Virus record (IMG/VR): IMGVR_UViG_3300037222_000092
Coordinates: 1-62,068 of that record
Direction: 5' to 3' (one strand)
From: a virus
Lineage: Duplodnaviria; Caudoviricetes
DNA: 62,068 bases
In this document: in pieces, positions 36,074 to 52,951 of the stretch
Numbering within the stretch: the first letter of the stretch is position 1
How the letters are laid out: each line of letters starts with the position of its first letter
Made by a program: the position numbers and the translations under genes
The notes under the pieces: model-generated
What the model saw: only the letters and a program-made list of their open reading frames with translations
What the model was told of the DNA's origin: nothing
Database searches by the model: none

Positions 36074-36116
36074 GAATTATCTCGGGGTCACAATGATGGA
36101 AAGATCAGTTGGCCAA

Positions 36117-36755: not shown

Positions 36756-36764
36756 TTTCGTCTC

Positions 36765-37148: not shown

Positions 37149-37150
37149 CC

Positions 37151-37726
37151 CTATTTCGCCTTGATCTTGATCTTGACGGTCTGATCCATCGTGCGTCCTC
37201 CAGACGTGACGATGCGGTTAGTCAGAGAATATCTCTGGCCAATCGTGCCACCAGATAGCCAGATGGCGCTGACAAGATCAGCCTTCGTGTCGCTGTTTTT
37301 TGTTATTCCGGTTGGAATAATCCACGTCGACGATGATATAGTATCGCCCTCTTCATCTAATGCGTTAGACCAATCGACATAATAATCAAGAATGTCATCT
37401 GGATCCTTGAACGGCCATGAGAGAGATCTTCCGAGATTAACGATAACGACACGAGAAGCTGGCATGAGCGCCACCGGAGCTGGAGACTCTGTCGTTCCTG
37501 TAGCTGCCTGGCCAAATGCCGGCACCGTCTCATCTTCTGAAGCGGCGATGATAGCCGCAGCAGCAGCAGTTTGACCAAATTGCGGGACCGTCTCGTTTTC
37601 TAGCGCAGAGATGATAACCGCAGTAGTCGCGGCCTGCGCGAAGTCTGGAATATTTTGTGACGCAGAGGCATTGATGCTGCCACCGCCGCCACCACTGGGT
37701 TGGTTAAATAGTAAAAGCAACGACAT
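37151..37726 (-). CDS. Fibre adaptor-like protein with N-terminal MSLLLLF tag
   Basis: C-terminal KDPDDILDYYVDW...IWLSGGT.G..Y..TNRIVTSGGRT domain; internal ETVPxFGQ repeats. Confidence 0.7.
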   Translation of the reverse strand: MSLLLLFNQPSGGGGGSINASASQNIPDFAQAATTAVIISALENETVPQFGQTAAAAAIIAASEDETVPAFGQAATGTTESPAPVALMPASRVVIVNLGRSLSWPFKDPDDILDYYVDWSNALDEEGDTISSSTWIIPTGITKNSDTKADLVSAIWLSGGTIGQRYSLTNRIVTSGGRTMDQTVKIKIKAK

Positions 37727-37836
37727 TTAATGTCCTTTGGTCGACGCTGGCGCCCGCGAGATGTTGGAATTTAGGGTACTAGCCAAGGTCGGCTGATTGC
37801 CTTAAGTTCAGGTGCTTCAATCAGGAGTTGCCAAAA

Positions 37837-38010
37837 ATGGAAAAAGACACCGATTGGAATTATTACGAGAGCTCTTTCACCACAAAACTTCTAATCGACG
37901 GATCAAGGTCATCTGGTCCTCTCATGCGACGGCAGATTAACCACGAGTGGAAATATCGCCGTATGACAAAAGAGGAAGAAACTGAATATATGTCCGGGAC
38001 AATTTGGTAA
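37837..38010 (+). CDS. Small inverted moron-like gene
   Basis: AGGAG RBS; opposite strand inside the late operon. Confidence 0.55.
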   Translation: MEKDTDWNYYESSFTTKLLIDGSRSSGPLMRRQINHEWKYRRMTKEEETEYMSGTIW

Positions 38011-38053
38011 CACCAGGACCGGTCCGACGCCAGTTGATGTTGTCAGTACCGAA

Positions 38054-38992
38054 TCACCCACCCATCATTGGGATGCCTGAAGATTTCACGGCTACGGTAG
38101 CTCCTGGTCCACCACTGCTACTAAGACCAGCATATCCCAAGCCAGGACCCGTCAGACCCCAGCCAATTATCGTCATATACAACCAATCAATTGGCTTAAG
38201 AGGAACGCTGCTTGATGTTGAGGGTGCAAAGCCCGTACTACCGAAGGCGTTGAAGGCGCTAGCATATGGAGTAGAACCCAAATTGTCGCCAGTATCTCCG
38301 TTAGTGTTGTTGTTCATGCTAACGATGCTGGTCGCGCCGCCATCCGAAGATAGATAGCGAGTGCCAGAGGCCGCGTTATTGCGCGTTCCACTTGCGCTAT
38401 AAGTAAAAATGTCTGCGATGTAAAAGGTGGTATTTGCGCCGGTGTTCATTTCACGGCCAAGAACTTCCGTGAACTCGTGCATCATTACACCATAGAGAGA
38501 ATATCCTCCCGTACATGTTGATCCGTCTACGCTGGTTATATCAAAACTAGCAGAGCTGCTAAATCCGCAATAACCGTCGGTAGCACTGCCAGTCCAAAAG
38601 CCAAGTGCTTTAGTAAGTGCCGAGGCAATCAAAATAGTCTCTGACCAACCAAACGGGTCTGTGGCTGGTAAATTTGTGGATGGATTAAATGCTGAAGTCT
38701 GTAGAGTATTTAACCCTGTAAATCCAGACAACGTAGTTCTGATATTAGCGTATGTTTCCGTATCGACGAAGTACATGCTCTGGCCAATATCGCCAGAGCC
38801 CATCGTTTGATTATCGACTTCGCCGTATCCACAATATATGTTGATCGTTACATCGGTTCCGTCCGAACGAAGCGTGGAAAGAGCGGTCTGAAGATCCGAA
38901 ACAACTCTTGTCCTAATAATATTCCAGGCCGCCATATTAGCATTAGTTGACCAAGATGTATCATCGTGGACTACAAGTGTCAGTGCTCCCAT
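38054..38992 (-). CDS. Zincin-like metalloprotease-domain protein (HExxE variant)
   Basis: KALG...DGYCGFSS...HEFTEVLGR...D.FTYSASGTR...YLSSDGG...GDTGD. Confidence 0.65.
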   Translation of the reverse strand: MGALTLVVHDDTSWSTNANMAAWNIIRTRVVSDLQTALSTLRSDGTDVTINIYCGYGEVDNQTMGSGDIGQSMYFVDTETYANIRTTLSGFTGLNTLQTSAFNPSTNLPATDPFGWSETILIASALTKALGFWTGSATDGYCGFSSSASFDITSVDGSTCTGGYSLYGVMMHEFTEVLGREMNTGANTTFYIADIFTYSASGTRNNAASGTRYLSSDGGATSIVSMNNNTNGDTGDNLGSTPYASAFNAFGSTGFAPSTSSSVPLKPIDWLYMTIIGWGLTGPGLGYAGLSSSGGPGATVAVKSSGIPMMGG

Positions 38993-39186
38993 TATGATAC
39001 ACCATACAGTTGCACGTCACCTGCTAAACCGACGACTTTCTCACCATCTGAAACATCGACTTGGGCCAGTTCTTTCGTGGCATATCGGATCGCGCCAGAG
39101 GGATTATCAGCATATAGGCGAGGAGGACCGATGGAAGACAGAAGCTTCCCGGTCTGCATATTTCGGACGAGAAAAATCATGCCCAT
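38992..39186 (-). CDS. Small hypothetical protein
   Basis: Coupled at both ends. Confidence 0.55.
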   Translation of the reverse strand: MGMIFLVRNMQTGKLLSSIGPPRLYADNPSGAIRYATKELAQVDVSDGEKVVGLAGDVQLYGVS

Positions 39187-39797
39187 CAGTTAAACGCCGC
39201 GTTGCAATCAAGAACAGGAGATGGAGCTGATGCTCCGGTAGCGGTTGTCGTGGCTGCGGCGCTGATGCCCGTGCCACCGATTGCAACTCCACCAACAGAT
39301 AAGGTAAACCCCCCGCTTCCACCCGGTTCAATGGGAAACGAATATACCGGCGTATCGGTTCCTACCGTCACGCTGCCAAAAGGTTTGCTGAAAACTTGCA
39401 CATAGACTTGCGATGCGCCGGAGTTGCCACACACCAGCATTCCAAGATTTCCAGCCGACGATTTTATGGCCTGTGCGCTATTTGTCAGCGCACTAAGTCT
39501 CGCAGGGCTTAACGCTGTGCTGCTGACTATCCAAGGCGACGTTCCCTGGTTTACGGCAGGGGCCGAAGGAAAGGTCACAAAGAAGGGGTTGCCGGTGACA
39601 CCGAACGCCGCGCCTGAAGCGTCCGCTGGCACCTGAAGCGGGCAAATGCCGGTGCAATTGAACGACTTCGCCGTTTGCGTCGTACCAGCAGCATCCTTGA
39701 ATGTGAAAGTGGTCTGAGCATTAGCAGTACCGATGAGGCCAACGATAAACGTCAGACTTAATAGAAGTTTTTTCATTTGCTGCTTCACGATTAACAT
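39186..39797 (-). CDS. Sec-signal beta-sandwich protein (paralog of 47247)
   Basis: MKKLLLSLTFIVGLIGTANA; AIKSSAGNL...N....YVQVF...GIS.A.T. Confidence 0.75.
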   Translation of the reverse strand: MLIVKQQMKKLLLSLTFIVGLIGTANAQTTFTFKDAAGTTQTAKSFNCTGICPLQVPADASGAAFGVTGNPFFVTFPSAPAVNQGTSPWIVSSTALSPARLSALTNSAQAIKSSAGNLGMLVCGNSGASQVYVQVFSKPFGSVTVGTDTPVYSFPIEPGGSGGFTLSVGGVAIGGTGISAAATTTATGASAPSPVLDCNAAFN

Positions 39798-42700
39798 TTA
39801 AATGCCCCACTTTGCTGTGAAATAAGCATCCAGAGCAGCGATGTCGGTCGGGCTGAGAACATCATTGACGACGACGAGCTCGGCTATCTTGCCTGGCATA
39901 GCATTTGCCCACGCCGAAGTCTTCGTCGCCACAATGCATCCTGGACTACCAAGAGTTCCGCTACCGGGAGCTACTGGAGTTCCACCGACGCCGTTGACGT
40001 AAGCCGTAAAACCAGTCGTCGGATTTGTCCCATCGTAGATAGACCCGACCCGTATCCATCCACCGGCCGTATAGCTCTGTGTTGCGACTGCGTTGTTGTG
40101 ATAAGCCGAGATCGTAGTAGAATTCTGGAATTGAATGCCAATCATCGAAGTCGGCGTGTAGTAATCGCTCGCATTGACGTAATCTATATCCGCCATCCAA
40201 CTCGCAATACGTGAGCTACTAGGAGAGCCATTCGCCAAAACGACAGCAAACATCGACATCTTGTTCGGGTTGAATATCAACCGGAACGAGTTGGAAACCA
40301 ACCCTTCCACATCAGAGTTAGTGCTAACCTGTACGACTTGTATTCCGTTCAACGAGTCCGTGACAGGCCTGGATTCGTTCTCGCCGCCGTTATAGAGCGT
40401 GTGTCCGTATAAGCTATTATCCGACCATGCCGTCACGTACCAAACACCATGCGTAGGATCGTTTACGGTAAAAAGTCCATTGTCGCCCTTGTACCAGCCG
40501 ATCAGATTTTGCAGTTTCTTCGGCGTCCAGGCTGACGCCGTTGAAGGAACGATCGCCGTGTTGCCGTCCCATGCGTGCAGATACATCATGGTCAGCGTGA
40601 AGGGCATTTCGTAGCCCCAAACGTAGCTCTCGTTTGACTGGATCGCGAACTTGTCTTGCAGCTGCAGTTCCCAGAACGACTGCGCGTAGCACCACGGCAC
40701 CATCTGCTTCGCGTAGCCGTTCGCGCCGTAGTTCGTCGTGCTCACGTTCTGCGCGATGGGAGACAAAGGCCCGTTGAGGTTGCCGACCGGGAATCCAGAG
40801 CTGCTGCAAAAGGCCCAGTACCCTGGGCTACACCAGCCGGCCGGCGTCGGAATTCCAGAATTGTAGGAGTCGTCGTGCGTACAGGCCTCGATGTGGCGCA
40901 GCCCGTGCATGGCGCTGTGTGAACGTCCAACCATGTTCGCACCTTGGCACCATTGAACGACGCTCTGCATCGCCTTTAGGTAATCGGTTCCTGTTGGAGG
41001 ATTTCCGCTCGGTACAGGATTGAGCTTCATCACGTGGACTTTGATAAGCGCGTCCCATCCGTTGAATTGCCAGGGACTTGACGCTCCTCCCCAGCCGCCC
41101 CGGAAGCAATTATCATCCGCCAGAAACTGCGAGGTGTTGACGTTGACGGTCGCGCGGTTATACCAGTACACCGACATATTAATTCCGGTGGTGGTTCCGA
41201 ACAGCGTTTGCATCCTCGCAAGAAGACCTGTCGTATAGGCCCAATTCAACTGATCCACGGTATTGATGTTTGTATTAATTAAGTTCGAAGACATGCCGCC
41301 GTCCGTCAACCACGTCTCGTAAAATGATCCCGCCGCCGACGCCGCGCCGACAAGCTTCACGTAGGAGCAGCAAGCGGAGGTGATCGCAGGCGCGCAGTGA
41401 TTATCAAGCGTGGTCATGTTCGTGGCAAACGTCGGGTCGGTCCAGACCATGTAGGTCTTCATGCCGATCTCACCGTCATAATAGGCGGTTTGGTTGGTCA
41501 GGTTTTGATAGAGGTTATAAGCCCAATTAAAGGCAGCAAGCCCGGAGTTGTAATAAGCCGTATAGGCGGCTGATGACCCGAGCCCGTACTGCGTCAGGAT
41601 ATCGCATAGATTCCACGCTGCCGAAGCGTAAAGCATCGTCGTCCAGTGGTCAGCCGCGTAGAGGAACGATGCTATGGGTCCATGCACGGATGAAGCAAAG
41701 GTCGGGTCGGTACCACAGTAAGTATCCATGGATACTGGCGCGAACGCGGTCTGCTGGGCGAAGTGACCTATGCCGTAGCCACCCGGAACTCGCCCGTCAC
41801 CGATCTGCGCTTGCGGGACGCGGTACGCCTCTAGCGCATAGATGGCCTCGTGTACAATGGCAGGCAAGATGTCAGTTGAACTGTCCCACACGGACGGGTC
41901 ACACATGGCCGAACTGAGCTGCGTCGGAGTCTGGAACGGCGTGACGCGGCCGTTCTTAGGAATATATTTAATCATACCAACGAAAGCGTTAATATTTCCC
42001 ATGTGATCAGATGCGAGGTCGTCGTTGTCGCCCGCATCTTGATGCGCCGGATGGCTACCGACCGCGCGCAGCGCGGGTGAGACAAGTCTCCCAGTCCAGT
42101 TGTAGGATCCACCGAAGTTATAAGGAATAGTAAGCGACTGGTTGTACGCTCCCGTCCCAGACAAATAGTGCGTGGGGTGGTCGCCCATGTTGTCCAGGAC
42201 CACGCCGCTCCCCTCAGATGATGCCATCGAGATAAGTGTTGACCAGTAATTCTCGTAGCCGCCGACGCCGTCGAGCTGGCACGGTCCGCGCTGGTAGGAA
42301 CCGTAGTCGAGAGCCATCCCGAGCCGGTGCTGATAAAGCCCGCGATGATAATGCGCGCATGTCAGCGCGTGCGCGGCCTCATCGATGAGGATCTCATCGC
42401 TTACGCCGTATCCTGGGATGTAGAGTTTATAGCGCCCCGGCGTCGTGAAGGACGAGTAGTCCATGCCGTAGACGTTCGTTCCGGCGCGGTTCGTCGCCTC
42501 CAGGCACTTGAAGGCCATGTTCTCGTAGCCGCCGTGTGGGCCGGGGCCGACGCCCGACGCGGCATGATCCCATGTCCCCGTCGTTAGGGCCGTGGTGTTG
42601 TTAACGGCAACCGATACCTGTGTGGCGTTGATATAGGTGACCGGGAGCGCGATGTTCGTCGCAGGATTCGAACAGCTGTTCACTGGGTCGCTGGTGTTTT

Positions 42701-43757
42701 CGAGATTACCAGCCCCGCTCATGCCGAAGCATCGCATGTGGTCGCCATTGCTGAATCCGTGCCCGCCAGCAAAGGTCAGCGTCGTCGGATTGCCTGTCGT
42801 TGAGACAGAGGTGATCTTCCAGACCTGACTCAAATCAGTCAGATCAAAACCGTGTAAATAGGCACCTCCGCCTGAGTCCACTGTGTCGATCTGATTGTAC
42901 GCCCTTCGAATTGTGATGCCGCCGACGCCACTGATACGCGCGAAGGTGGCGACCGTAGCCAGCGTCACAGCGTCGATGAGATAGAATGTCGCACCATCGC
43001 CCATGCCATAAGCCGCGAAATCGACGACGCCGTTCCCGCGCCCCGGAACGCGGCTGCATAGGTACGCGAGCTTCACCTCATCGTTCGGGCGGTGGCCTCC
43101 GTGCGAGACCTTGATGCCCCCCGCGCGGGTCACCTTGTCGTTGAACGTTAACGTCCTGTCCGGGAACGCCGCCGCGCTATGGCTGATCTTGTATGCCGTG
43201 TTTGCTACCGGAGGCGACGCCAGCTGAATGTAGGCCGTCAGCATACCGCGCTGGATGCTGAAGTTTCCGTCATAGCCGGCGCCGCAGAATTCCGTGCGCG
43301 CGGTGACCGCGCTCACCGTCAAGCCCGCACCACCCACGATCGAGTAGTTGGACGCCTGAGCGAATGCCACCCGATCTATGTAGCGCGGCGGATAGAGGTC
43401 CACAAACCTGACCGCGCTCTCATCTGGCCTTACGACCTGACAGCTTTGGCTGCTAGGGTAAGGAGTATTACCATCACGTGGGTTATTTTTGGTATGGTAT
43501 GCTCCATAAGTGTCGGTGTATGGCGTGGCAGGCGTGAAGATGTTGCCTGACTTGATCGGGTCGTCGCGCTCCATAACGCCAATAACGTCCGGTGTCTCCA
43601 TCCAGACATCATTCTGCAGCGCAGGCGAATAAATTGGCTGGAACGTAGTAGGCGCAGCTCCAGACGGTTTACCATGCCGAAACCAGGCCTCAGCTTCTCT
43701 TGGTGCAAAGGCTAACGCCGTGGCCCCTATTAACAAGTTTCTGCGGGATACGCTCAT
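39798..43757 (-). CDS. Tat-signal GH9 (cellulase-like) glycoside hydrolase with C-terminal LamG-like domain
   Basis: SRRNLL signal; DYSSFTTPGRYKLYIPGYGVS (Ig-like N-domain); RGLYQHRLG; HQDAGD; SNE near the end of the catalytic domain; IAELVV...YFTAKWGI. Confidence 0.75.
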   Translation of the reverse strand: MSVSRRNLLIGATALAFAPREAEAWFRHGKPSGAAPTTFQPIYSPALQNDVWMETPDVIGVMERDDPIKSGNIFTPATPYTDTYGAYHTKNNPRDGNTPYPSSQSCQVVRPDESAVRFVDLYPPRYIDRVAFAQASNYSIVGGAGLTVSAVTARTEFCGAGYDGNFSIQRGMLTAYIQLASPPVANTAYKISHSAAAFPDRTLTFNDKVTRAGGIKVSHGGHRPNDEVKLAYLCSRVPGRGNGVVDFAAYGMGDGATFYLIDAVTLATVATFARISGVGGITIRRAYNQIDTVDSGGGAYLHGFDLTDLSQVWKITSVSTTGNPTTLTFAGGHGFSNGDHMRCFGMSGAGNLENTSDPVNSCSNPATNIALPVTYINATQVSVAVNNTTALTTGTWDHAASGVGPGPHGGYENMAFKCLEATNRAGTNVYGMDYSSFTTPGRYKLYIPGYGVSDEILIDEAAHALTCAHYHRGLYQHRLGMALDYGSYQRGPCQLDGVGGYENYWSTLISMASSEGSGVVLDNMGDHPTHYLSGTGAYNQSLTIPYNFGGSYNWTGRLVSPALRAVGSHPAHQDAGDNDDLASDHMGNINAFVGMIKYIPKNGRVTPFQTPTQLSSAMCDPSVWDSSTDILPAIVHEAIYALEAYRVPQAQIGDGRVPGGYGIGHFAQQTAFAPVSMDTYCGTDPTFASSVHGPIASFLYAADHWTTMLYASAAWNLCDILTQYGLGSSAAYTAYYNSGLAAFNWAYNLYQNLTNQTAYYDGEIGMKTYMVWTDPTFATNMTTLDNHCAPAITSACCSYVKLVGAASAAGSFYETWLTDGGMSSNLINTNINTVDQLNWAYTTGLLARMQTLFGTTTGINMSVYWYNRATVNVNTSQFLADDNCFRGGWGGASSPWQFNGWDALIKVHVMKLNPVPSGNPPTGTDYLKAMQSVVQWCQGANMVGRSHSAMHGLRHIEACTHDDSYNSGIPTPAGWCSPGYWAFCSSSGFPVGNLNGPLSPIAQNVSTTNYGANGYAKQMVPWCYAQSFWELQLQDKFAIQSNESYVWGYEMPFTLTMMYLHAWDGNTAIVPSTASAWTPKKLQNLIGWYKGDNGLFTVNDPTHGVWYVTAWSDNSLYGHTLYNGGENESRPVTDSLNGIQVVQVSTNSDVEGLVSNSFRLIFNPNKMSMFAVVLANGSPSSSRIASWMADIDYVNASDYYTPTSMIGIQFQNSTTISAYHNNAVATQSYTAGGWIRVGSIYDGTNPTTGFTAYVNGVGGTPVAPGSGTLGSPGCIVATKTSAWANAMPGKIAELVVVNDVLSPTDIAALDAYFTAKWGI

Positions 43758-44770
43758 GGCAATCCCAACGCTAGGAAGCTGGTATTGCTGTTTACAGAGA
43801 AGTCGAGTGAGCCTTGAGCACCACCGCCAGCAAAAGTTGTTATCGACCGCCAACCCATCTTCATGAGCGCCGTGTATTTGCGCTCGGACAACGGATACAC
43901 AACAGTCTCTCCGGTGTTCGTCGCCGTAGTTCCATCTGAGCCAAAACTATTATCAAGACCACCGCGATGTGAGTTGGCTTTGAAGTGGATGTAGTTGTTG
44001 TGCGGATAAGCGGAATGCAAAATCTTCGGGCCTCCGTCGGCGGCAACTAAAGCGGCCGTTGCCGGATACGCGCCGACCATTGAGACTCCATTCGTAGGGT
44101 ACCCATGAACTCCCACATTCCCGTCTGTAGGATCGACGTAAGCACAATTATCCAGATAATTAAGACTATCAAGATGGGCAGTTATCGCCCCGATGCCTTC
44201 GTCATTGACGATATTAGAGCGATCCGGCGGAGGGCCGACCACCAGGAGCGGTGCCATCGCGGCGGTCGTGTACATCGATCTGATCTCCGCCCAAAGAGAG
44301 ATCATGTGGGCGGTGTATGGAGTCTGGTTACCTTCTAAGCCAGTTTCGTTGTAACCGTGGTTCCAGTCGAAGAACCAAATTCTATTGCCCGCATTTTGTG
44401 CCAGAGCTGCAGCGAGCTTCGCCTCCCAAGGATCAAGACCTACTCTGCTGCTATCGACAGCCCATCCGGCGTTGAAGGCCATCCCAGCTCGGGCGCCGTC
44501 CACTATCAGGATGTTGTACCCGGATGGGATCTTGCCGCGCTGCGATAGCAATCGACACAGCGCCAATGTTGAACCAACGCAATTTGGATTCATGCCATTG
44601 GTTAGGTTGTTGTTTAATGGCTCAGTGGCCAGCTGTATGGTGCCGTTGTCCAGGAAGTCGGCAACCTTGTTGTCGCTAACGTCTATGGACGCGTCGTAGA
44701 AGTCGCCACATCCGGCGTTGCTGTCTCCGGCTAGCCCGACGATGAGGTACGGCGGTGCGGGGACCGTCAT
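43754..44770 (-). CDS. SGNH-family (sialate/carbohydrate O-acetyl) esterase
   Basis: GLAGDSNAG block I, WNHGYNE block III, YIHF block V. Confidence 0.75.
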   Translation of the reverse strand: MTVPAPPYLIVGLAGDSNAGCGDFYDASIDVSDNKVADFLDNGTIQLATEPLNNNLTNGMNPNCVGSTLALCRLLSQRGKIPSGYNILIVDGARAGMAFNAGWAVDSSRVGLDPWEAKLAAALAQNAGNRIWFFDWNHGYNETGLEGNQTPYTAHMISLWAEIRSMYTTAAMAPLLVVGPPPDRSNIVNDEGIGAITAHLDSLNYLDNCAYVDPTDGNVGVHGYPTNGVSMVGAYPATAALVAADGGPKILHSAYPHNNYIHFKANSHRGGLDNSFGSDGTTATNTGETVVYPLSERKYTALMKMGWRSITTFAGGGAQGSLDFSVNSNTSFLALGLP

Positions 44771-46290
44771 ATCGTCAGCCCTATCTTGGTTCCCATGTAC
44801 GTTTCGAGATGAGCGAGGTTCGTCGGGCTGATCGATCCTGAGAGCTTGATCACCAGCTCAGCGATGTCGGCCGCAAAGAATAACGAGTTCGAGACAAGGG
44901 AAGCGTTCCCTAAAGCAAAGTTCGCGCTGGTTAGCGTACCGGGAGCACTGTAGGTGTACGTCCCGACTTGAACCCCGTTTACCCGAGCAGTCAGTTTGGT
45001 TCCGTCGTCGATAAAGGTCAGCACCTTCCAAGTGTTGTCGAAGACTCCGGTAGCTAATGTTTGGTTGTTCACAAAAATTCCGCCAGCATCGTTCCTCATG
45101 TTCGCCAGCCACGTGGACGCAGTCGTTACACCAGAGCCGATGGGGTCGAATATCTCCGATCCAGAGGTGACAAACTCCTGAAGCAAAACGCGGCTGGCGG
45201 CCGGGTTTGGCTTGACCGCCATGCAGATTGTTGATCCTGCATGAGATGTCATAGCCGCAGCTAAACCAAGCGGAGTGGCCTTCCCAAGGACATCATTGAT
45301 GCCATCGAAACTGACGCAACGCGGAGAAGTTTTGAACACTGGAACGGGGAAGTTCTGGGTTGATCGCGGAATGATGTCAGAGATCGCAGCGAGATTAAAC
45401 GCGGAACCACTCTTATCGCTCCAGTTAGCTACGTGGTCTAGATTGAAAACAACCTGGCTGGTTCCCGCCAAATACTGCCACATTGTGAATCGATCATCGG
45501 CGGCCAGCCAAAGATTAGGCGCGATGGTGGTAAGGACGTCAAATCCGGTGCTGGGCGATTGCGTCCAACCGCCCGAAGACGCAACGGCAGAGTTGTTCCC
45601 TGCCACGTCCTGATGCACGAAGTAGGCGTGGCGAGTGCCCGATGTGGTCAGTCCGAACGCAGTGGCAGCAAGGCTCGTGCTTGAAACCGGCGTCAATCCA
45701 TTTGCCAAGGCCGCGGTCCCGCCGTCGTTCTGACCGGCAACGACCTGGGCTATGGTTGGTGGCGTTGCGCTTGCGGTCACCACCCAAAATAGAGAGCCGG
45801 GACTGTCGTTCGTCGTCACCGACAAGGCGGCGTTAGTATCGTTGGTACCATTCTGTGCACCAGCGGCACTCGAAAGAGTTGGGGCTATCGTATCGATCAC
45901 TACTGTCAGTGGCGTACCGGCGATACCACCATTAACCGTCGCAGTGAATATGTGAGTGCCGTCGGCGAGCGCCGAAAGTCCCCAACTAAATGCGCCGGCG
46001 TTAGCCTCTCCGGAGGTGATAGTGTGGGTTGAAATTGTTGTGCTGCCGTCGATGAGTGCGACGACATCACCAGATTTTAGAATCTGATCGGTGTTAAGCG
46101 CGATGTTCGGAACATTATTATTGGTAATGTTGTCTGAAGGAGACGATCCGGTGTCTGAGGTTAGCGTCAACAGAGGAAATGATGAAGAAGGAGGCGGCGG
46201 GCTTCCGTGCGGCCACCATGCTTCGGCGTCCTGCGATATTGCTATCGTAGCCGCACCAGCCAATAGAAAGTTTCGTCGAGAGAACTTCAC
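44767..46290 (-). CDS. Tat-signal protein with Ig-like and LamG-like domains
   Basis: SRRNFLL signal; SDTGSS.SDNITN...LADGTH.FTAT...IDT.AP Big-type repeat; WLAADD..WSDKSG..FDG.ND..IAELV. Confidence 0.8.
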   Translation of the reverse strand: MKFSRRNFLLAGAATIAISQDAEAWWPHGSPPPPSSSFPLLTLTSDTGSSPSDNITNNNVPNIALNTDQILKSGDVVALIDGSTTISTHTITSGEANAGAFSWGLSALADGTHIFTATVNGGIAGTPLTVVIDTIAPTLSSAAGAQNGTNDTNAALSVTTNDSPGSLFWVVTASATPPTIAQVVAGQNDGGTAALANGLTPVSSTSLAATAFGLTTSGTRHAYFVHQDVAGNNSAVASSGGWTQSPSTGFDVLTTIAPNLWLAADDRFTMWQYLAGTSQVVFNLDHVANWSDKSGSAFNLAAISDIIPRSTQNFPVPVFKTSPRCVSFDGINDVLGKATPLGLAAAMTSHAGSTICMAVKPNPAASRVLLQEFVTSGSEIFDPIGSGVTTASTWLANMRNDAGGIFVNNQTLATGVFDNTWKVLTFIDDGTKLTARVNGVQVGTYTYSAPGTLTSANFALGNASLVSNSLFFAADIAELVIKLSGSISPTNLAHLETYMGTKIGLTI

Positions 46291-46293
46291 GTT

Positions 46294-47232
46294 TTAGCAA
46301 CCGATGCAATGGCTTCCGCCTCCGGCTCCGCCGGTTGGCGCGTTAATGGTGATGCCAGTGTTGCTCCCCATGTCGAAGGAGTTGTTCGCGGTCACGGCGG
46401 TCGTGGTGAACGTGGTATGAAAAATTGATGCCCAGCTTATTGTCGCCGCTGTAGTGATTGCCAGATTTACGGCTTGCGCAGCACTGTCGTCAAACTGGAT
46501 CAGTCCGGTCGACGTTCCGATAGCATTTAACGTCCCGATAGTTTGCGTTGCGTTCCCTGTAATAATATATCTGGCTGGCCCGTTTAGATTTAGTGTGGCG
46601 ATGGTGCCGCCAGTATTACCAAAAGACTTAGGCGTACCGGTCGACGAGTTCATCGTAACTATGTTGTAGGTTTTACCGCCGCCGTTCCAGATACTCGATC
46701 CGTTAACACCGTTCCCGCCCCACACGATCGTCGAACTGTTTGCATTAAACGTCAGATTGGTTACGACGCTGAAGTCCCAATTAACGCCGGTCGCCACAGA
46801 TCCGCTCAGGGTCCATGTTCCGTTCCCTAGATTTAGGGTTCTGGTTCCAGTCCCCGTGCCGCTAAACTCATTGGTTAAAGTAATATTCGGGTTGCTCGTC
46901 GCAAAATCCAGCGTTCCTGTGAACGCACCCATGGTGATTGATTGGAACGTGGAATTATTTAGGGTGGAATCTGCCGTGACGGTGCCGCCGCCCGAACTGG
47001 CGTCGAAGGTGGCCTTATCGGTTGTCGCCGACGGTAAGCAAGTACAGGTCGTTCCACCACTGGTGAACGACCAATGTGTAGTGGACGAGTTGTCCCACGT
47101 TCCGGTGCCACCAATCCAATAGCAATTATTAGCCGGCGTTCCGCCTGAGCATGTAGTCGCGTTCGCAGCAGACGGCAGCGAGACGAACGCCAGCGCCAGC
47201 GCAGTGAGAGCGTAGCGAAGGAAAGATTTCAT
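46294..47232 (-). CDS. Sec-signal beta-helix-like protein
   Basis: Signal ending AANA; YWIGGTGTWD...FDASSGGGTVT; Thr/Gly/Asn-rich; C-terminal GGAGGGSHCIGC. Confidence 0.75.
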   Translation of the reverse strand: MKSFLRYALTALALAFVSLPSAANATTCSGGTPANNCYWIGGTGTWDNSSTTHWSFTSGGTTCTCLPSATTDKATFDASSGGGTVTADSTLNNSTFQSITMGAFTGTLDFATSNPNITLTNEFSGTGTGTRTLNLGNGTWTLSGSVATGVNWDFSVVTNLTFNANSSTIVWGGNGVNGSSIWNGGGKTYNIVTMNSSTGTPKSFGNTGGTIATLNLNGPARYIITGNATQTIGTLNAIGTSTGLIQFDDSAAQAVNLAITTAATISWASIFHTTFTTTAVTANNSFDMGSNTGITINAPTGGAGGGSHCIGC

Positions 47233-47246
47233 GGCGCGGTCCTCAC

Positions 47247-47852
47247 TCAGTTTAAGTCAATGTTGACACTCATGGCGCCGGCAGTCGCCGCCGTGGTGTC
47301 GGTGAGTGCGTAGCCAGAAGTCACACAAATTGAGATGCCAGCGGAGAACGCTATACCAACCGTGTAATGAACCGAGATACCGCCAACCGAAGTCGAAGCC
47401 GGGATGGCGTATTGTTTGATGGCGTTCGTTGCGCTGTTGCATCCGTTAAATCCGGTCCCCGCGTTATAGAAACGGATGTAATTGACCGTGGCAGAATTGT
47501 TGGTGACGGTGAACCCGTAGAGGGTGCCAGCACCGTTCTTCACGACTTGATGGTTGTCGCTAGCGGTAGGCTGAAACACCGGGTATGCCGTCGCACCACC
47601 TGACGGTCCCGCCGTCGGCGTTTCAAAGAGCGGATTGGCCGCCGTACCCTTTTCAGCTCCGGTATTGTCAATCAGCACCGTGGCCGAGCAAATATCCGTC
47701 GTTTGACAGACAAATGACCAGATCGGTGCTGCTGTGCCTGGCTGCGGCAGGTTGAACGTCGTTCCTGCCCCGCCGAACACGTACATCGACGGAAAGATCA
47801 GGACCGCGAGAGCGAAAAGCCCGAAGCCCCAATGCTTGAGAAACTGTTTCAT
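47247..47852 (-). CDS. Signal-bearing beta-sandwich protein (paralog of 39186)
   Basis: Hydrophobic N-terminus; VVKNGAGTLYG...N....YIRFYN...GIAFSAGIS; RBS AAAGGAAA. Confidence 0.75.
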   Translation of the reverse strand: MKQFLKHWGFGLFALAVLIFPSMYVFGGAGTTFNLPQPGTAAPIWSFVCQTTDICSATVLIDNTGAEKGTAANPLFETPTAGPSGGATAYPVFQPTASDNHQVVKNGAGTLYGFTVTNNSATVNYIRFYNAGTGFNGCNSATNAIKQYAIPASTSVGGISVHYTVGIAFSAGISICVTSGYALTDTTAATAGAMSVNIDLN

Positions 47853-47868
47853 GGTGTGTTTTCCTTTG

Positions 47869-48084
47869 TCAGAACTGCATGGGAGACGGGATGAACGCGA
47901 CTGTGTCCGAGCAAGCCTGCGGTATTCCCGGCATAATCGCGCAGTTGCCTTGGGTGACTGGAGGAGTAACTCCACCACTGATGCTGATGTTGTAGTTGGA
48001 GTCGCGCGACTGCCAATACGTCCATGCACCCGTCGCAACGAACCATAAGCAAGTTGCGAGCAGCGCAGTGCTCAGGCTTCTCAT
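47869..48084 (-). CDS. Small exported peptide
   Basis: Signal-like N-terminus then YWQSRDSNYN, a GG/PP linker and a Cys pair; ATGA-coupled. Confidence 0.6.
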   Translation of the reverse strand: MRSLSTALLATCLWFVATGAWTYWQSRDSNYNISISGGVTPPVTQGNCAIMPGIPQACSDTVAFIPSPMQF

Positions 48085-48803
48085 AGTTCATACCCGAACG
48101 AATTTACATCTACCGCCGAGGCGGTTCCGTCAGCCGTAGTCGTGATGGTGATCGGAGTGTTCACCGCGATGGCCGGGATACAGGGGTTGAAACTTCGCGA
48201 GAACGTGGATCCTGCTGCGGTTGATGAGAACTGATAAGTTGCCGAGCTTGTAATCAAACCTGCAACTACTATCGGTCCCACCGTTGCCGTTCCTCCGAGA
48301 GCCGACACGTCGAAACCGCAGATGTAGGTCGTCTTGGCACTCGTTCCGGCGAGCGTGCCAACGACCGCGCCGGTTGTACCTGTGCTGTTGCCCGTGATCG
48401 GCGTAGCACCACCAGGGTATTGCCCGGTTAGGTAGCCTATGGGATTGGTCCCTGCAGGAATGGCCGCAGCGCTGTTTGTAACAAGCGTCGCCAAAGAAGA
48501 ATTTGCTGTTGTTTGATTGGCAGAAGTTGCCGCACCCGTCGGCAGTGAAATAGTACCGCTGACGTTCGTTACATTCCATGTCCCTGACTGTGCCACCAGG
48601 AACGGCGTCATGGCTGATATGCCCTGCACTGTCAGAACATTTGACTTCGCCGTTCCCGCCGTCCCAATAAGGTTGTCCAACGTCGAGACAGTGCCAGATC
48701 CTGCCGTTGGCACGCCGCTGGTGATTGTGACCGTGCTGACATTCTGCGCACAAGCCAGACTCGGAGCCAGCGCGATAAGTAGGGCTAGGATTATCTTGCG
48801 CAT
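48081..48803 (-). CDS. Sec-signal protein (paralog of 48927)
   Basis: MRKIILALLIALAPSLACA; QYP.GA.PIT...KTTYICG...PCIPA...GYEL. Confidence 0.8.
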   Translation of the reverse strand: MRKIILALLIALAPSLACAQNVSTVTITSGVPTAGSGTVSTLDNLIGTAGTAKSNVLTVQGISAMTPFLVAQSGTWNVTNVSGTISLPTGAATSANQTTANSSLATLVTNSAAAIPAGTNPIGYLTGQYPGGATPITGNSTGTTGAVVGTLAGTSAKTTYICGFDVSALGGTATVGPIVVAGLITSSATYQFSSTAAGSTFSRSFNPCIPAIAVNTPITITTTADGTASAVDVNSFGYEL

Positions 48804-48804
48804 G

Positions 48805-48930
48805 TTAAAATCCTAAAAAGTAGTAGGTCGGATGACCTGATGGGGGCGGACTGCCTCCGGTGCCGTGCCAGAACGCAAGTGCTGGAGCGGTTAGAGCAAG
48901 CGCAGCTATGAGTACGAGGACAAGTTTCAC
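48805..48930 (-). CDS. 41-aa exported peptide (mature FWHGTGGSPPPSGHPTYYFLGF)
   Basis: GTG overlaps the upstream TGA; 19-aa signal ending ALA. Confidence 0.65.
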   Translation of the reverse strand: MKLVLVLIAALALTAPALAFWHGTGGSPPPSGHPTYYFLGF

Positions 48931-49829
48931 AGTTGATATCCCCAGCCCTTCGACGATACATTGCCACCGGCACCTGGCGTTCCAGAGACAATGGCAATGC
49001 CAGTGTTGGTCGCACTTGCCGGGATGCACGGCGAGAATATTTGTTCGTCAACCCCGATGCCTGAAGCAAGAGGGGCAACCCACATGATCGAACTCATCGT
49101 TGCTGTGATGACGCCAGTGATCGTGTTGGTGACGGTCGCGGCTGCGGTCGCGTTAGCGCGGATCGAGTAGCCACAGATGTACGTGGTCTTTCCAACGGTG
49201 CCAGCGAGCGTTGCGGTTGTTGCCCCCGTGGTTCCGGTAGCTGACGCGGTAATCGGAACGGCCCCAGCCGGGTACTGACTAGTAGAGGTTGAATTTGTAA
49301 CCCACGGAGACGTGCCCTGATTGACTGTGCCGATAACCTTGGTCGTCTCAGCATTCAGTATTGCCGGTTGTGGTTGCCCCCCGCTAACGCCCTGCACCGT
49401 CACAATGGCGCCGGTCGGAGTTCCCGCCGTTGCCGTACCTGGGTTAAGCCCAACAACAAGTGTTGTGTCAGTCGCCGCAGGCAAGGTTGATGCCGCCTTG
49501 ACAGTCGCGACGTTGGCGCCGGCGCTGTCGACTATACCGACGCCGCCGATCGAGACCGTCGGGGCTTGGGTAGGAATTGCGCCAGTGATGCCAGCCAAGA
49601 TGGCGGCAGAATTTGCCTCGGTGACTGTGTTCGTTACAAACGCATTAACCCCAGGCACCTTCACCGCGCCGGGTGATGTGCCGTAGTTTGCCATCGCTCC
49701 TAAGATTGGGCTGGCTCCAGCGCCCCACTGTTTCACATTGACATTGCCAGTCTGTGCCCATGCAACGCTAGGCGCGAACAGCAGCGCAAGGACAACAAAC
49801 CTGATGGTATTTTTCATCATGATCACCAC
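48927..49829 (-). CDS. Sec-signal protein (paralog of 48081)
   Basis: Signal ending AWA; QYPAGAVPIT...KTTYICG...PCIPA...GYQL. Confidence 0.8.
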   Translation of the reverse strand: MVIMMKNTIRFVVLALLFAPSVAWAQTGNVNVKQWGAGASPILGAMANYGTSPGAVKVPGVNAFVTNTVTEANSAAILAGITGAIPTQAPTVSIGGVGIVDSAGANVATVKAASTLPAATDTTLVVGLNPGTATAGTPTGAIVTVQGVSGGQPQPAILNAETTKVIGTVNQGTSPWVTNSTSTSQYPAGAVPITASATGTTGATTATLAGTVGKTTYICGYSIRANATAAATVTNTITGVITATMSSIMWVAPLASGIGVDEQIFSPCIPASATNTGIAIVSGTPGAGGNVSSKGWGYQL

Positions 49830-50242
49830 TTGATCGCTGTGAATTTGTGCCCGGTCGTGGCGCCGACTATGCTGACGGAATGGAATGGAAGCATGCCGTG
49901 TGGCGTCGTATAGCTACCCCCGCCAGCAGCGACGTTGATACTCGCTTGTCCATTCGCCAGCGCAGTAGTTGATAATGAAATCCATAAATCTTCGGTCGCG
50001 TCTGGATTGTGAACCGTGAATCCGTTTGTCGGTGTTGCGGATGCAAATAAATCCTGCGCGGTTCCGCCAGTAGTAATCGTTCCTGATCCATCCGATCCAG
50101 AGGCAGTCGAAATTATTTCGGCACCCGCGCTGGTATTTGGCACAAAGCGCTGAAGTTGCTTTGTTACCGCATCCTCAGTAATCGAATTGGTTGCTATATC
50201 AGCGCCGGAGCCCGGAGTGACCGGTACATTAGAAGTTGTCAT
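49823..50242 (-). CDS. Beta-sandwich virion-associated protein
   Basis: NVPVTPGSGA; SGTITTGGTAQ...GATTGHKFTA; no signal peptide. Confidence 0.7.
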   Translation of the reverse strand: MTTSNVPVTPGSGADIATNSITEDAVTKQLQRFVPNTSAGAEIISTASGSDGSGTITTGGTAQDLFASATPTNGFTVHNPDATEDLWISLSTTALANGQASINVAAGGGSYTTPHGMLPFHSVSIVGATTGHKFTAIKW

Positions 50243-50246
50243 CGGA

Positions 50247-50654
50247 TTAGGCCCCCGGCGCTGTCTTGGTGAATCCGTTGACGTTGATGGTCTGGCCGAT
50301 TGCAATCGATGGATTATCGACCGTCAGATCGCCACCACTTCCTGTGATAGTAACTGCCCCCTGTTCGTGACAAGTTGCCCCAGTCGAATCATAAATTCGG
50401 TAATGTCCGATCGTGCCTGCGGCGAGACCTGTCGTCACCAGGGATAAATTATTAAATACCTTTGCTCCCGCTGACGCAGCAGCTGCCCAATCTGATGCCA
50501 TAGCATCCTCAGCGAGTAACGTGCCCGCTTCGGCTGCGGCACAATTTGCAGGCTGTGCCCCTGTGTAAAATCGCAATTTCGCAGAAGGGCCGATCGCGGT
50601 TTCCCACGCATCGAGCATCCCGTTGCGAACGGTCGTGGAATTTTGAACGGTCAT
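50247..50654 (-). CDS. Virion structural protein (fibre/neck-associated)
   Basis: RNGMLDA...LRFYTGAQPA...GT..HYRIYDS.G..CH.QG.V...GGDL. Confidence 0.7.
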   Translation of the reverse strand: MTVQNSTTVRNGMLDAWETAIGPSAKLRFYTGAQPANCAAAEAGTLLAEDAMASDWAAAASAGAKVFNNLSLVTTGLAAGTIGHYRIYDSTGATCHEQGAVTITGSGGDLTVDNPSIAIGQTINVNGFTKTAPGA

Positions 50655-50729
50655 GGGAATGCCTCATGTTAGATTGGCGAAGCGGAATTGATCATTGCGG
50701 AATAGCGGACACCGCGACCGTGACACGCG

Positions 50730-51461
50730 TTACATCCAAACGCGATAACTCGTAAGAAGTGCTTGCACGGCCCCATTGATCGCGGCTTCCGCGCCACCGC
50801 CCATAGTCCAGCCGCGGTCTAGAATTCCCGGTACGGATTCCCGGCTAAGAAATAGATTTTGCTGTGTAAGAGATCGGAGGTGGCTGACCTGCAGCGCTAT
50901 TGCTGTTCGAATTGTTTCCGGAACATCCGTTCCATCGTCTCCGTAACCCGCAATAAACTGAACTATGACAGAGCCAGGAGTCAGCGCCGTAGACGGCCAA
51001 CTCGCACCCGTAACCAAAGACAAATCGGACGGCGCGTCCGCATTAACGATGTAGGTAGCCGGATCAAATGTCTGCGGGTTTCCATCAACGTCGAGATAAG
51101 TGACGCTCACGACCTCCTGCAGAGGCGGCAATGGAATTGCAATGCCGTGGCGTTTTTTCGACGTGTAGGGATACATCCCCCACAATTCCTGTGGGTGCGG
51201 ATACCAGACTTCCTGCGGATAAAAGCCCTTTTCCTGGTAATAATAATTTGACGTTGGAAAGCGATCGAGCACCAAGTTCCAGGTTTGCGTATTCAATGCC
51301 CGGCCGAGCCAACCATCTGGCCCATCAATCATCTGCCGTGACGCGCTGACGAGTGCATCGACCACGGTATCTGTTAGCTCAGTACCAATGTTAAGCCGCG
51401 CCCTCACTTCCGCAGTGGTCAATGGCTCGACATCCGGCGGTTCGACGAGAACGAGCGACAT
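50730..51461 (-). CDS. Head-tail connector protein (gp6-like)
   Basis: PP.VEPLT.AEVRARL...GRAL.TQTW...PPLQ.V.SVTY.D..G...AGYG...VPE.IR.AI. Confidence 0.9.
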   Translation of the reverse strand: MSLVLVEPPDVEPLTTAEVRARLNIGTELTDTVVDALVSASRQMIDGPDGWLGRALNTQTWNLVLDRFPTSNYYYQEKGFYPQEVWYPHPQELWGMYPYTSKKRHGIAIPLPPLQEVVSVTYLDVDGNPQTFDPATYIVNADAPSDLSLVTGASWPSTALTPGSVIVQFIAGYGDDGTDVPETIRTAIALQVSHLRSLTQQNLFLSRESVPGILDRGWTMGGGAEAAINGAVQALLTSYRVWM

Positions 51462-51464
51462 GGA

Positions 51465-52172
51465 TCACCGCCTCCGGAATGCGAATGAACCGATGTCCTC
51501 GCGACCGATCTTGGTCTCGATGTCGCTGTGCTCTATGCAATCAAAGCCCAGTGAATTCATCACCGTAATCAAACCTGGTGCGGTAAAATACCAAACGTGT
51601 TCGTCTTTACGAAAATGCTTCGAGCCAAGCACATGATCGCAGTCATTAAAGATCGGCAGCGAGACAAAAACCCACTCTCTCACATTATCCAATAGGTGAC
51701 GGAAATCATGGATATGCTCGAGCACGTCCCATAGACTAATCGCATCAACCGGCACGAGATTCGGATCAATCAGCAGATTCTTGTCCGCCAGCCACTTCAT
51801 CGCCTTCGGACAAACGTCCCAACCGTAAGTCTTGCGACGCCCCTGGTTGCGCAATTCAACGAAGGCGCCGGATCCGATTCCGACATCGACCAGCGTTCCA
51901 CTGAAATGGCGTGCGACAAAATCAACACGCGCCCGCATCAGAGTGCGGCCGATCTCCGAATTGGCCTGGTCGGCAAAGCGGTCGAAATAGGCGGTGTTGT
52001 AGGGTGCGATTCCGGCCTCGACCGGATAGTAACCGATCCCGATATCCGGCCACCATGTCAGCCGGCGCGCTGCGATGATGTGGCGTAAAGACCGGCTCGG
52101 TTCACGAAGCCCATCCACTGTTCCGACAAATTCGTTATTTGCTTGTCGCAAAGGTGCTGCATATCCGTGCAT
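51465..52172 (-). CDS. Class I SAM-dependent methyltransferase
   Basis: LVDVGIGSGAF motif I; WDVLEHI; start uncertain. Confidence 0.85.
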   Translation of the reverse strand: MHGYAAPLRQANNEFVGTVDGLREPSRSLRHIIAARRLTWWPDIGIGYYPVEAGIAPYNTAYFDRFADQANSEIGRTLMRARVDFVARHFSGTLVDVGIGSGAFVELRNQGRRKTYGWDVCPKAMKWLADKNLLIDPNLVPVDAISLWDVLEHIHDFRHLLDNVREWVFVSLPIFNDCDHVLGSKHFRKDEHVWYFTAPGLITVMNSLGFDCIEHSDIETKIGREDIGSFAFRRR

Positions 52173-52951
52173 CGACAGAACCTTTCGGGCATTGCAAATC
52201 CGATGCGCGATAAATTCATGCGCGGATCGGTTATTTTCTCTGGTGCGTTATGGCCGCCATGACCGCCGAGCACGATGAACGCCTTGGTCTTGAGTGCGAT
52301 CGCGGCCGGCACGATCCAACCGACGCCGCCGACGACCACGTCCGCATCGCGAATGAGCGCGAGCAACTGGCGGACGTCGAATTCTCCGTTGACGAAAGCG
52401 GCATTGTGCGGCGGCAACTCGCCAGCGAGCCATTCCTCGCCAACCTTTAAATGAGCTACCACCACGACAGCAAAGCCACGGCTTTTCAGATCGGATGCAA
52501 TGCTCGCAATATATTCCGGTCGGGGACTTCTTGCGTCGTTCTGCCATTCCGTTCGCACAGTGACGGGGCGAATAACCGCGAGTTTTGCCTTACCAGAATC
52601 AACCGGGCTCTTGCCTAATGGCGGCAAATCCCATTTCGGCTTCGTTCCATTATATGGCAGCGATTGCTCGATCGCAGTGATAACAGAACCGTTGGCGAGT
52701 TGCATGCCTTTGTAACCGACATGCACGGTACTGATACCATACGGAGTAGGCGACCATCGGCCCGCTGGCTGCAGCAAGACATTTTGCGTTTGCGTGCGCA
52801 GTCGGCGGTCACCCTGCACAAAACGTAACGGCAAATCCTCGTAGAGTTCCGGCCACGGCGTATCTAGCCAAACGTCATGATATTGGCAGAGTGCACTAAT
52901 GAACGGCCGCGAATATATATTATCGCCAAGACCCCAGCATCCGTGGATCAA
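52058..52951 (-). CDS. Glycosyltransferase-like protein (GT-B, GT9-like)
   Basis: GLGDNI N-terminal motif; ALIRDADVVVG...AAIALKTKAFIVLGG. Confidence 0.7.
   Translation of the reverse strand: MIHGCWGLGDNIYSRPFISALCQYHDVWLDTPWPELYEDLPLRFVQGDRRLRTQTQNVLLQPAGRWSPTPYGISTVHVGYKGMQLANGSVITAIEQSLPYNGTKPKWDLPPLGKSPVDSGKAKLAVIRPVTVRTEWQNDARSPRPEYIASIASDLKSRGFAVVVVAHLKVGEEWLAGELPPHNAAFVNGEFDVRQLLALIRDADVVVGGVGWIVPAAIALKTKAFIVLGGHGGHNAPEKITDPRMNLSRIGFAMPERFCRCTDMQHLCDKQITNLSEQWMGFVNRAGLYATSSQRAG

Follow-up and report, generated by a model that had tools for sequence, protein, structure and literature searches.

What could be the role of phage genes whose predicted products hold little more than an export signal, a linker and short terminal motifs? 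Two genes of this kind, p41 and p71, lie on the minus strand of the IMG/VR virus record IMGVR_UViG_3300037222_000092, and by the window we mean this whole stretch of 62,068 bases (linear class; completeness estimate 74%). Both are real genes under purifying selection. Each also carries a short terminal tag that in other contigs sits on otherwise unrelated proteins and next to a recurrent neighbouring gene. As such, we tentatively propose, as a reading slightly short of probable and built on alignments and gene order, that the p41 and p71 products are minimal connectors or caps in an exported module, i.e., cargo-less members of tag-defined families.

Two mini-genes under purifying selection

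An earlier note, made from the letters of this DNA, had described both open reading frames (ORFs), and their coordinates, strand and build of signal, tag, linker and tag are all in the sequence as described. It also placed each of them directly after one of a set of paralogous scaffold-like genes, and p300 does precede p41 just as p240 precedes p71. The elements of the four genes are listed here; the signal peptides and cleavage sites given throughout were judged by eye from the sequence alone.

48927..49829, minus strand: p300, with a Sec signal and, at 48930-49286, a C-terminal p300-type beta-sandwich
48805..48930, minus strand: p41 gene, 41 codons plus stop
48874-48930, minus strand: p41 signal-like segment of 19 amino acids, ending ALA
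48862-48873, minus strand: p41 FWHG
48832-48861, minus strand: p41 Gly/Ser/Pro linker of 10 residues
48808-48831, minus strand: p41 C-terminal tag PTYYFLGF, followed by the stop
48081..48803, minus strand: p240, with a Sec signal, a GVPT segment (48669-48743) and a C-terminal 8-strand beta-sandwich with two invariant cysteines (48084-48416)
47869..48084, minus strand: p71 gene, 71 codons plus stop
48025-48084, minus strand: p71 signal-like segment of ~20 amino acids
47977-48018, minus strand: p71 N-terminal tag YWQSRDSNYNISIS
47947-47976, minus strand: p71 GG/PP linker
47911-47943, minus strand: p71 C-x9-C loop
47872-47904, minus strand: p71 tail of 11 residues

The start of each mini-gene overlaps the stop of the gene before it, p41 with a GTG (GTGA) at the stop of p300 and p71 with an ATG (ATGA) at that of p240, and p240 itself starts 1 nucleotide past the p41 stop. 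Sec signals have a basic n-region, a hydrophobic h-region of ~10-15 residues and small residues at -3 and -1, and by eye both segments are of this type. The signal-like segment of p41 has a lysine at position 2 and stays hydrophobic up to residue 16, with A-L-A preceding F20; that of p71 has an arginine at position 2, a hydrophobic run and T-G-A before W21, and the p71 tag, the residues of which are invariant in the alignment, starts 2-3 residues past the predicted cleavage site. Ahead of the p41 start, the same frame stays open over 33 codons, and no slippery site for a p300-p41 frameshift fusion was seen by eye.

For comparison, 39 loci from related viral contigs were fetched with p240 and 11 with p300. 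Two of these contigs, 3300037202_000025 (L043) and 3300037140_000024, form one lineage, with ~78-80% DNA identity and both mini-ORFs in place. The earlier note had conceded that the ORFs might prove not to be conserved; this lineage keeps both of them, and it does so with more synonymous than nonsynonymous codon differences. Against L043, p41 shows 16 synonymous and 8 nonsynonymous differences along with two in-frame indels, both within the linker, while p71 shows 19 and 11, respectively, and a single one-codon indel. The Nei-Gojobori ratio of nonsynonymous to synonymous substitution rates (dN/dS) is 0.16 for p41 and 0.11 for p71; among the flanking genes it is 0.21 for p300, 0.17 for p240 and 0.27 for p201, with p312 saturated. 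At 84% identity to its L043 homologue, p71 is the best-conserved protein of the neighbourhood, the others being 47-66% identical. In L043, the closest relative, a gene that looks by eye like a GIY-YIG-type homing endonuclease lies at 4704-5399, between the portal and p300-like genes.

A profile search with p41 retrieved, from 19 candidates, four further homologues of 39-41 amino acids in other metagenomes (P0271-P0274; E-values 4e-20 to 1e-8) and four weaker matches of 36-66 amino acids, which have only the last ten residues in common. With these, the p41 form is known in at least five diverged versions of 55-69% identity, in which the tags are invariant and the linkers vary. In a seven-sequence alignment, the invariant block is the C-terminal PTYYFLGF, and the linker varies in length as well as in sequence. 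All five signal-bearing members of the alignment keep FW(H/K)G, with a lysine in place of the histidine in P0274. The earlier note had laid its emphasis on the aromatic-HG motif at the other end of p41, and with the C-terminal tag being the invariant part of the family this emphasis is not supported.

Terminal tags and their neighbouring genes

The C-terminal tag (C-tag) family was defined in this work by pattern scans, in which the tag was back-translated degenerately and a stop was required behind it. These scans yielded 4 loci in viral sequences and 17 in metagenomes, 8 of the latter being real C-terminal tags. Five of the 17 were rejected as an unrelated internal PTYYF(F/L)GFW, in which the last codon of the pattern is Trp and not a stop, and four more as chance matches in AT-rich non-coding DNA. 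The real scan loci together with the window make up 10 distinct contexts. Here the carriers are 40-230 amino acids long and end in the tag, which a flexible linker sets off from the rest, as is also the case in P0271-P0278. The bodies of the carriers are unrelated and include "GIPV" repeats, a TIG domain and, by eye, further domains of Ig-like type; a signal peptide is missing from most carriers. The smallest carrier is p41, in which the tag and its linker are preceded by just four residues and the export signal. Four carriers (L070 5004-5201, L074 151-651, P0276 and P0277) start with G-(I/L/M)-P-(V/M) repeats that match no Pfam family; this repeat end may be a particle anchor.

In nine of the 10 contexts the next gene, starting 1-12 bases further on, opens with what we call the GVPT segment, ~20 residues of the form x-V-T-(I/L)-T-x-G-V-P-T-x-G-x-G...T-L, which is found at the mature N-terminus of p240. 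The exception is L081, where a cysteine-rich gene is inserted at the usual place of the GVPT partner. Beyond the segment, identity of the downstream proteins to p240 is no more than 22-30%, and in some of them the C-terminal domain is a different one, so that the link between tag and GVPT segment has outlived deep divergence. In all nine contexts in which the C-tag protein and the GVPT protein are both visible, their signal status agrees, both having a signal or both lacking one, and in the four contigs checked the remainder of the module matches as well, except for the signal-less p338 of the window. The relatives L069 and L070 have a homologous module that is entirely without signals.

The codons of the C-tag vary freely between loci (five leucine codons and three glycine codons are used), which argues for selection on the peptide and not on an overlapping ribosome-binding site. 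The possibility of the tag being an artefact of the p240 ribosome-binding site was ruled out, as the codons differ and, in several loci, the stop is followed by a separate GGAG.

The N-terminal tag (N-tag) family, likewise defined in this work, comprises proteins in which a signal peptide is followed by WQSRDSNYN. Another 13 viral contigs carry the motif, in each case immediately behind a signal-like segment and at the head of cysteine-rich proteins of 248-414 amino acids, and it is invariant across them. Seven of these long proteins align end to end and their shared body looks lectin-like, with only one of the seven having a Pfam match (ArabFuran-catal, in L044); other long proteins match He_PIG or Gly_rich_2. 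With bodies from different families behind it, the N-tag is joined to cargo of unrelated kinds. Directly upstream of the long N-tag gene, 11 of the 13 contigs have a gene for a p300-type beta-sandwich; one has a different gene there, and in one the position lies beyond the end of the locus. A predicted model of a long homologue is weak overall (mean predicted local distance difference test score, pLDDT, of 56), with 29-43 in the tag region, and these low values are compatible with a flexible extension without being proof of one.

The match of p71 to the long N-tag proteins runs through signal and tag to the end of the first disulfide loop and stops there, with the 250-400 amino acids of the body missing. 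It would therefore be better described, on this alignment, as a truncated stub of a ~300-amino-acid lectin-like protein than as a purpose-built bridge. No p71 homologue was scored among longer proteins in a search of 109 candidates, the long forms having come from DNA patterns. Searches of sequence atlases returned only unnamed viral clusters for p240 and sub-threshold leads for p71.

Neither long tag was found in deposited phages or, as a real ORF, in representative prokaryote genomes. In the latter, the 4 loci matched by the C-tag pattern all lie in stop-broken frames, and of the 3 loci matched by the N-tag pattern one is in a stop-filled frame and two, by a regular-expression check, do not encode the motif. 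A literature search did not find YYFLGF, QSRDSNY or PTYYFL; supplements, which may hold the gene lists of GP4-like phages, lay outside that search.

The third motif of the locus is aromatic-HG. The earlier note saw the N-terminus of p41 echoed in two proteins with twin-arginine translocation (Tat) signals, and the echo is there, each copy directly after AEA:

44767..46290, minus strand: p507, with the Tat-type signal SRRNFLL, WWPHG (46204-46218), a Pro/Ser linker, and Big_13 and Laminin_G_3 domains
39798..43757, minus strand: gene of the ~1319-amino-acid protein, with the Tat-type signal SRRNLL, WFRHG (43671-43685) and a linker

Tat signals have the consensus S/T-R-R-x-F/L-L before a hydrophobic region and A-x-A at their end, and both proteins show these features as read from the sequence. 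After Sec or Tat signals, mostly Tat, aromatic-HG was found in four phage contigs (three proteins in the window, two in L043, two in L041 and one in L059), and the upstream neighbour differs in every case. The earlier note took the aromatic-HG tags as docking motifs. The pattern expected of such motifs is seen in the C-tag (nine of 10 contexts) and WQSRDSNYN (11 of 13), both of which are tied to a neighbour, and is not supported for aromatic-HG, which has no constant neighbour and in P0274 has exchanged its histidine for lysine. Aromatic-HG may belong to the region of signal cleavage or characterise the mature end.

The presumed partners of the two long tags are p300 and p240, which are paralogous (36% identity over 227 amino acids; E-value 4e-22). 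p201 and p160 were tried as further p240 paralogues and rejected (hhalign probability <1%), so that the term "paralogous scaffolds" is true of p300 and p240 only. The C-terminal domain of the two belongs to a large unnamed family, with 1094 proteins in a word-based search and 1034 cluster representatives in an exhaustive search with p300; all 18 members fetched have a signal-like N-terminus and two conserved cysteines, and P0008 and P0012 have two tandem copies of the domain. Residues 131-240 of p240 are predicted to form a complete 8-strand beta-sandwich (pLDDT 82-93). Foldseek found no match for this domain in the PDB at an E-value of 0.001 or below. In the VIA-wide comparison the best match was a satellite-virus coat protein (Z 8.1), followed at Z 5-7.6 by phage baseplate parts, cement proteins, Ena subunits, PBSX XepA and TNF/C1q heads. 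In BFVD, the best match was a 126-amino-acid uncharacterised Curvibacter phage protein (E-value 3.9e-9), with others to small uncharacterised phage proteins and to giant-virus collagen-like fibre ends. These fold searches indicate only a generic jelly roll or knob. A complex prediction of three mature p240 and three mature p41 chains, made with our own alignments, gave no answer (score 0.00) and weighs neither for nor against binding, p41 being shorter than the partners in the method's calibration set.

In representative genomes, the family was found in a prophage of Bradyrhizobium sp. LjRoot220 (L065), five times in an alphaproteobacterial metagenome-assembled genome (MAG) and on a small contig of a Solirubrobacteraceae MAG. 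The five loci of the alphaproteobacterial MAG (L061-L064 and L066) are similar elements, each with a signal-bearing p240-type gene of 105-172 amino acids (cut short in L066). Four of these p240-type genes are closely followed by a conserved gene, by eye a small terminase. They may represent a repeated prophage-like or satellite-like element.

Proposed docking and its alternatives

On the evidence of alignments and gene order, the two long tags are modular end-pieces linked to the neighbouring gene. They are terminal, set off by linkers, invariant while the cargo changes and tied to a neighbour, and carriers of the C-tag share signal status with the GVPT protein next to them; these properties together make docking the best reading of the tags, physical contact being what we infer from them. 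The nine module proteins with Sec or Tat signals would all have to share one compartment, and a shared compartment for the products of side-by-side genes usually means contact, which further leads us to read the tags as docking pieces.

The mechanism that we envisage begins with p41 and p71 as functional late genes with coupled translation. Their products would leave through the Sec pathway and lose the signal to signal peptidase, which yields mature peptides of ~22 residues from p41 and ~50 residues from p71. The C-tag, (Y)VPTYYFLGF-COOH, would bind the GVPT segment of the next protein or be needed for its assembly, likely as an added beta-strand, and p41 would provide this tag to p240 free of cargo. 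The N-tag, (F/Y)WQSRDSNYN-x-S, would be bared by signal cleavage and dock its cargo on the p300-type domain encoded by the preceding gene, with p71 retaining only the tag and the first disulfide loop. Both peptides would then sit at the docking sites of p300 and p240, linking the two hubs or capping them, and capping and bridging fit the data equally well. The earlier proposal that the peptides bridge one scaffold type to the next agrees with p41 lying between the two paralogues and not with p71, which comes after p240 and in this is unlike its relatives.

Several points weigh against p41 and p71 being connectors or caps. The gene upstream of p71 encodes a p240-type domain and not a p300-type one, the p300-type gene being two genes further up, and this order departs from the rule in relatives. 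Short p71 forms were seen in just one lineage besides the window (3300037202_000025, 3300037140_000024 and QGNH01000692.1), which is also what a recent truncation would look like. Of the N-terminal tag, p41 retains no more than FW, and its role may be one of capping and not of bridging. Close linkage of genes can also stem from inheritance as a joint cassette and not from contact, and the tags could be chaperone, protease or sorting signals. Lastly, no cultured phage with the family was found among 50,697 deposited phage records.

That the two ORFs are chance open frames and no genes at all has next to no probability. They are very short, one of them starts with GTG, and neither has a Pfam or PHROG family, but synonymous changes outnumber nonsynonymous ones, indels stay in frame, homologues were called independently in other metagenomes and the same neighbours keep both ORFs in position. 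A more serious, if unlikely, explanation is that p41 and p71 are functionless stubs, i.e., deletion remnants kept open by translational coupling to the downstream genes, with p71 descending from a ~300-amino-acid lectin-like gene and p41 from the signal-FW 5' end of one gene fused to the 3' end of a C-tag gene. It has in its favour that long N-tag forms prevail, with 13 contigs to a single other lineage of the short form, that p71 matches the N-terminus and first cysteine loop of the long proteins with the body gone, that the p41 start and signal-AFW lie exactly at the start site of the N-tag gene of relatives, and that both starts overlap the preceding stops. Coupling, however, preserves a frame and not residues, and p71 is 84% identical where its neighbours reach 47-66%, the dN/dS of the pair being 0.11-0.16. 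The p41 form, moreover, persists in at least five versions of 55-69% identity with invariant tags, and other cargo-less C-tag peptides exist (P0275 and P0278). Deletion would explain the origin of both genes, but the conservation of their residues stays unexplained.

Quite unlikely in our view, though least so for the motifs that follow a signal, is the idea that the tags are processing, chaperone or sorting signals and the mini-peptides decoys or regulators; for instance, the N-tag and aromatic-HG could target proteins to the surface or the outer membrane, and the C-tag could be captured by an assembly chaperone. The N-tag and aromatic-HG always lie right at the predicted signal-peptidase site, aromatic-HG has no constant neighbour gene, and the C-tag is rich in aromatic residues with a terminal Phe, like the C-terminal signal of outer-membrane proteins. 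Nevertheless, the C-tag is mostly found on signal-less proteins, and this excludes it as a signal for sorting in the periplasm. Each long tag also goes with one specific neighbour gene, a link for which a general host pathway has no need, and no candidate sorting enzyme was seen in the module. Secreted bioactive peptides directed against the host envelope or competitors, such as a beta-signal mimic that jams BamA or a bacteriocin-like peptide, would also be small and exported, and p41 ends in aromatic residues with a C-terminal Phe while p71 has a disulfide loop and a final Phe. We hold this very improbable. The same C-tag ends cytoplasmic proteins of 66-230 amino acids, the N-tag is common to lectin-like proteins of ~300 amino acids, no immunity, maturation or export genes lie nearby, and the motifs, which were not found in the literature, have no tie to known peptide families.

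A putatively exported module in the late operon

The window has a G+C content of 50-58% and no tRNA genes, and its late genes lie on the minus strand. The head block runs from 60271 downwards with small and large terminase, portal, protease, major head protein and methyltransferase, and ends with a head-tail adaptor (50730-51461) and a virion structural protein (phrog_3758). Between the major head gene region and the adaptor, 51465-52951 (minus strand) encodes a methyltransferase (phrog_6564) and a phrog_6804 protein. The neck and tail block restarts at 36755 with a Neck1-like protein, tail terminator, tape measure, distal tail protein and a fibre of 1298 amino acids. Separating the two blocks are ~14 kilobases of close-packed genes without a PHROG or Pfam family, except for p160 (phrog_22789, at the start of the run), p507 and a 191-amino-acid protein.

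Nine genes of this late operon, at 39186-49829 (minus strand) between the head-tail adaptor and the neck genes, have Sec- or Tat-like N-termini: p300, p41, p240, p71, p201, p312, p507 (Tat), the ~1319-amino-acid protein (Tat) and p203. The genes of the module overlap or adjoin their neighbours. Over 36000-52000 there are 14 promoter-like sites against 12.0 expected from shuffled sequence and 13 terminator-like sites against 14.8 expected. A scan of the late-operon gaps for further tag mini-genes found none. Other genes of the region are as follows.

47247..47852, minus strand: p201, the gene after p71, with a hydrophobic N-terminus and 4 cysteines
46294..47232, minus strand: p312, with a Sec signal and 6 cysteines; its L070 homologue is signal-less with 0 cysteines
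37151..37726, minus strand: p191, whose C-terminal 80 amino acids resemble the GP4 fiber-tail adaptor gp77

The gp77-like domain of p191 matches PF23148 (E-value 6.6e-25), the PDB chain 8JOU_D (E-value 9.2e-5) and phrog_4137; the adaptor that it matches is that of podophage GP4, although the window genome is siphovirus-like. The signal-less p338, a protein of 338 amino acids at 43754-44770 (minus strand), lies between the two genes with Tat signals, with an overlap on either side. A GDS-like motif can be discerned towards the N-terminus of p338; the protein has no Pfam match at an E-value of 0.01 or below and could be a co-exported Tat "hitchhiker". An enrichment of cysteines in exported forms was considered and not upheld: the p312 family fits (6-7 cysteines with a signal, 0 without), but signal-less GVPT proteins carry 1-4.

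The phage DNA recurs in peat and permafrost metagenomes: 12 DNA runs from such habitats contain most of the stretch, 7 of them possibly source runs, and no RNA run was among those listed. Over 47800-49000, contigs from 4 peat or permafrost runs of 4 further studies show zero differences to the window, and one phage genotype thus seems to be widespread in such habitats. Among the deposited phages, blastn of 44700-50700 and tblastn of p240 were without a match.

How does such a module compare with known systems? The nearest solved precedent is the chain-like fibre of the podophages GP4, VP1 and A1002, in which beta-sheet augmentation attaches small fibre dimers to a rope protein, so that small beta-sandwich subunits are held by a separately encoded extended peptide from an adjacent gene (PMC13730344). 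The window resembles this arrangement in the gp77-like domain of p191 and, if the tags dock as proposed, would do so in its build. It differs in that p160 and p201 have no sequence match to the solved chains, 8JOU is absent among the fold matches listed for the p240 domain, the window proteins of this siphovirus-like phage carry Sec or Tat signals, and the "rope" would be only 22-50 residues long.

With the cohesin-dockerin system the module shares varied exported cargo for glycan binding or degradation, a short terminal module behind a Pro/Gly/Ser linker and beta-sandwich partners. Dockerins, however, have duplicated calcium-binding loops, which the tags of 8-14 residues lack; no Dockerin or Cohesin Pfam match was found in 10 module proteins or in the relatives scanned, and the setting is a phage late operon. 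In donor-strand and N-terminal-connector systems (chaperone-usher pili, TasA fibres and Bacillus Ena appendages), adjacent beta-sandwich subunits are linked by a strand that lies beside the site of signal-peptide cleavage. The fold matches of the p240 domain include Ena subunits (8pdz, Z 7.0; 7a02, Z 6.2), with Z values that lie in the generic jelly-roll range, and disulfides are implied. A language-model lead from p71 to SipW-type signal fragments scored 0.85, below the threshold. Donor-strand pilins have an incomplete sandwich, one strand short, and come with chaperone and usher genes. The p240 C-terminal domain, in contrast, is predicted as a complete 8-strand sandwich, and the PHROG and Pfam scans found no chaperone or usher family.

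Export signals among structural or lysis genes are also familiar from lambda, in which Lom and Bor are exported prophage late-operon morons, and from PBSX XepA (6i56, Z 7.2 to the p240 domain); a moron is an autonomously expressed prophage gene flanked by a promoter and a terminator of its own. Those are single genes with known or separate roles, whereas the window has nine close-packed, putatively exported genes, and its promoter-like and terminator-like sites show no excess. We know of no precedent for a whole structural-looking module being exported in a tailed phage, and our literature search on signal peptides in phage structural modules found nothing relevant among the titles listed. Short docking strands are already known from phage fibres, and the novelty lies in the present tags, in the forms of them without cargo and in the predicted export of a module as a whole.

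If the tags do dock, they would constitute a portable code of 8-14 residues for the parts of phage appendages, one that can be read from gene order in uncultured phages, and the tag-only peptides would be natural minimal test pieces for it. A far-reaching and decidedly unlikely extension is that phages of peat Alphaproteobacteria send an appendage module through Sec and Tat to the periplasm, where disulfides form and the parts snap together via terminal tags of 8-14 residues, with tag-only connectors of 22 and 50 residues, and the assemblies meet the cytoplasmic virions or the cell surface only at lysis. Were this true, it would amount to a periplasmic assembly line for phage appendages made of hubs, lectins and glycosidases, running on a previously undescribed peptide-docking code. 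The beta-sandwich family behind the hubs spans more than 1000 sequence clusters and has neither a name nor a cultured representative. More widely, proteins of the module whose homologues are cytoplasmic in some phages bear Sec or Tat signals in others, and do so as a complete set, which points to tailed phages whose glycan-binding appendages are assembled or put to use beyond the cytoplasm.

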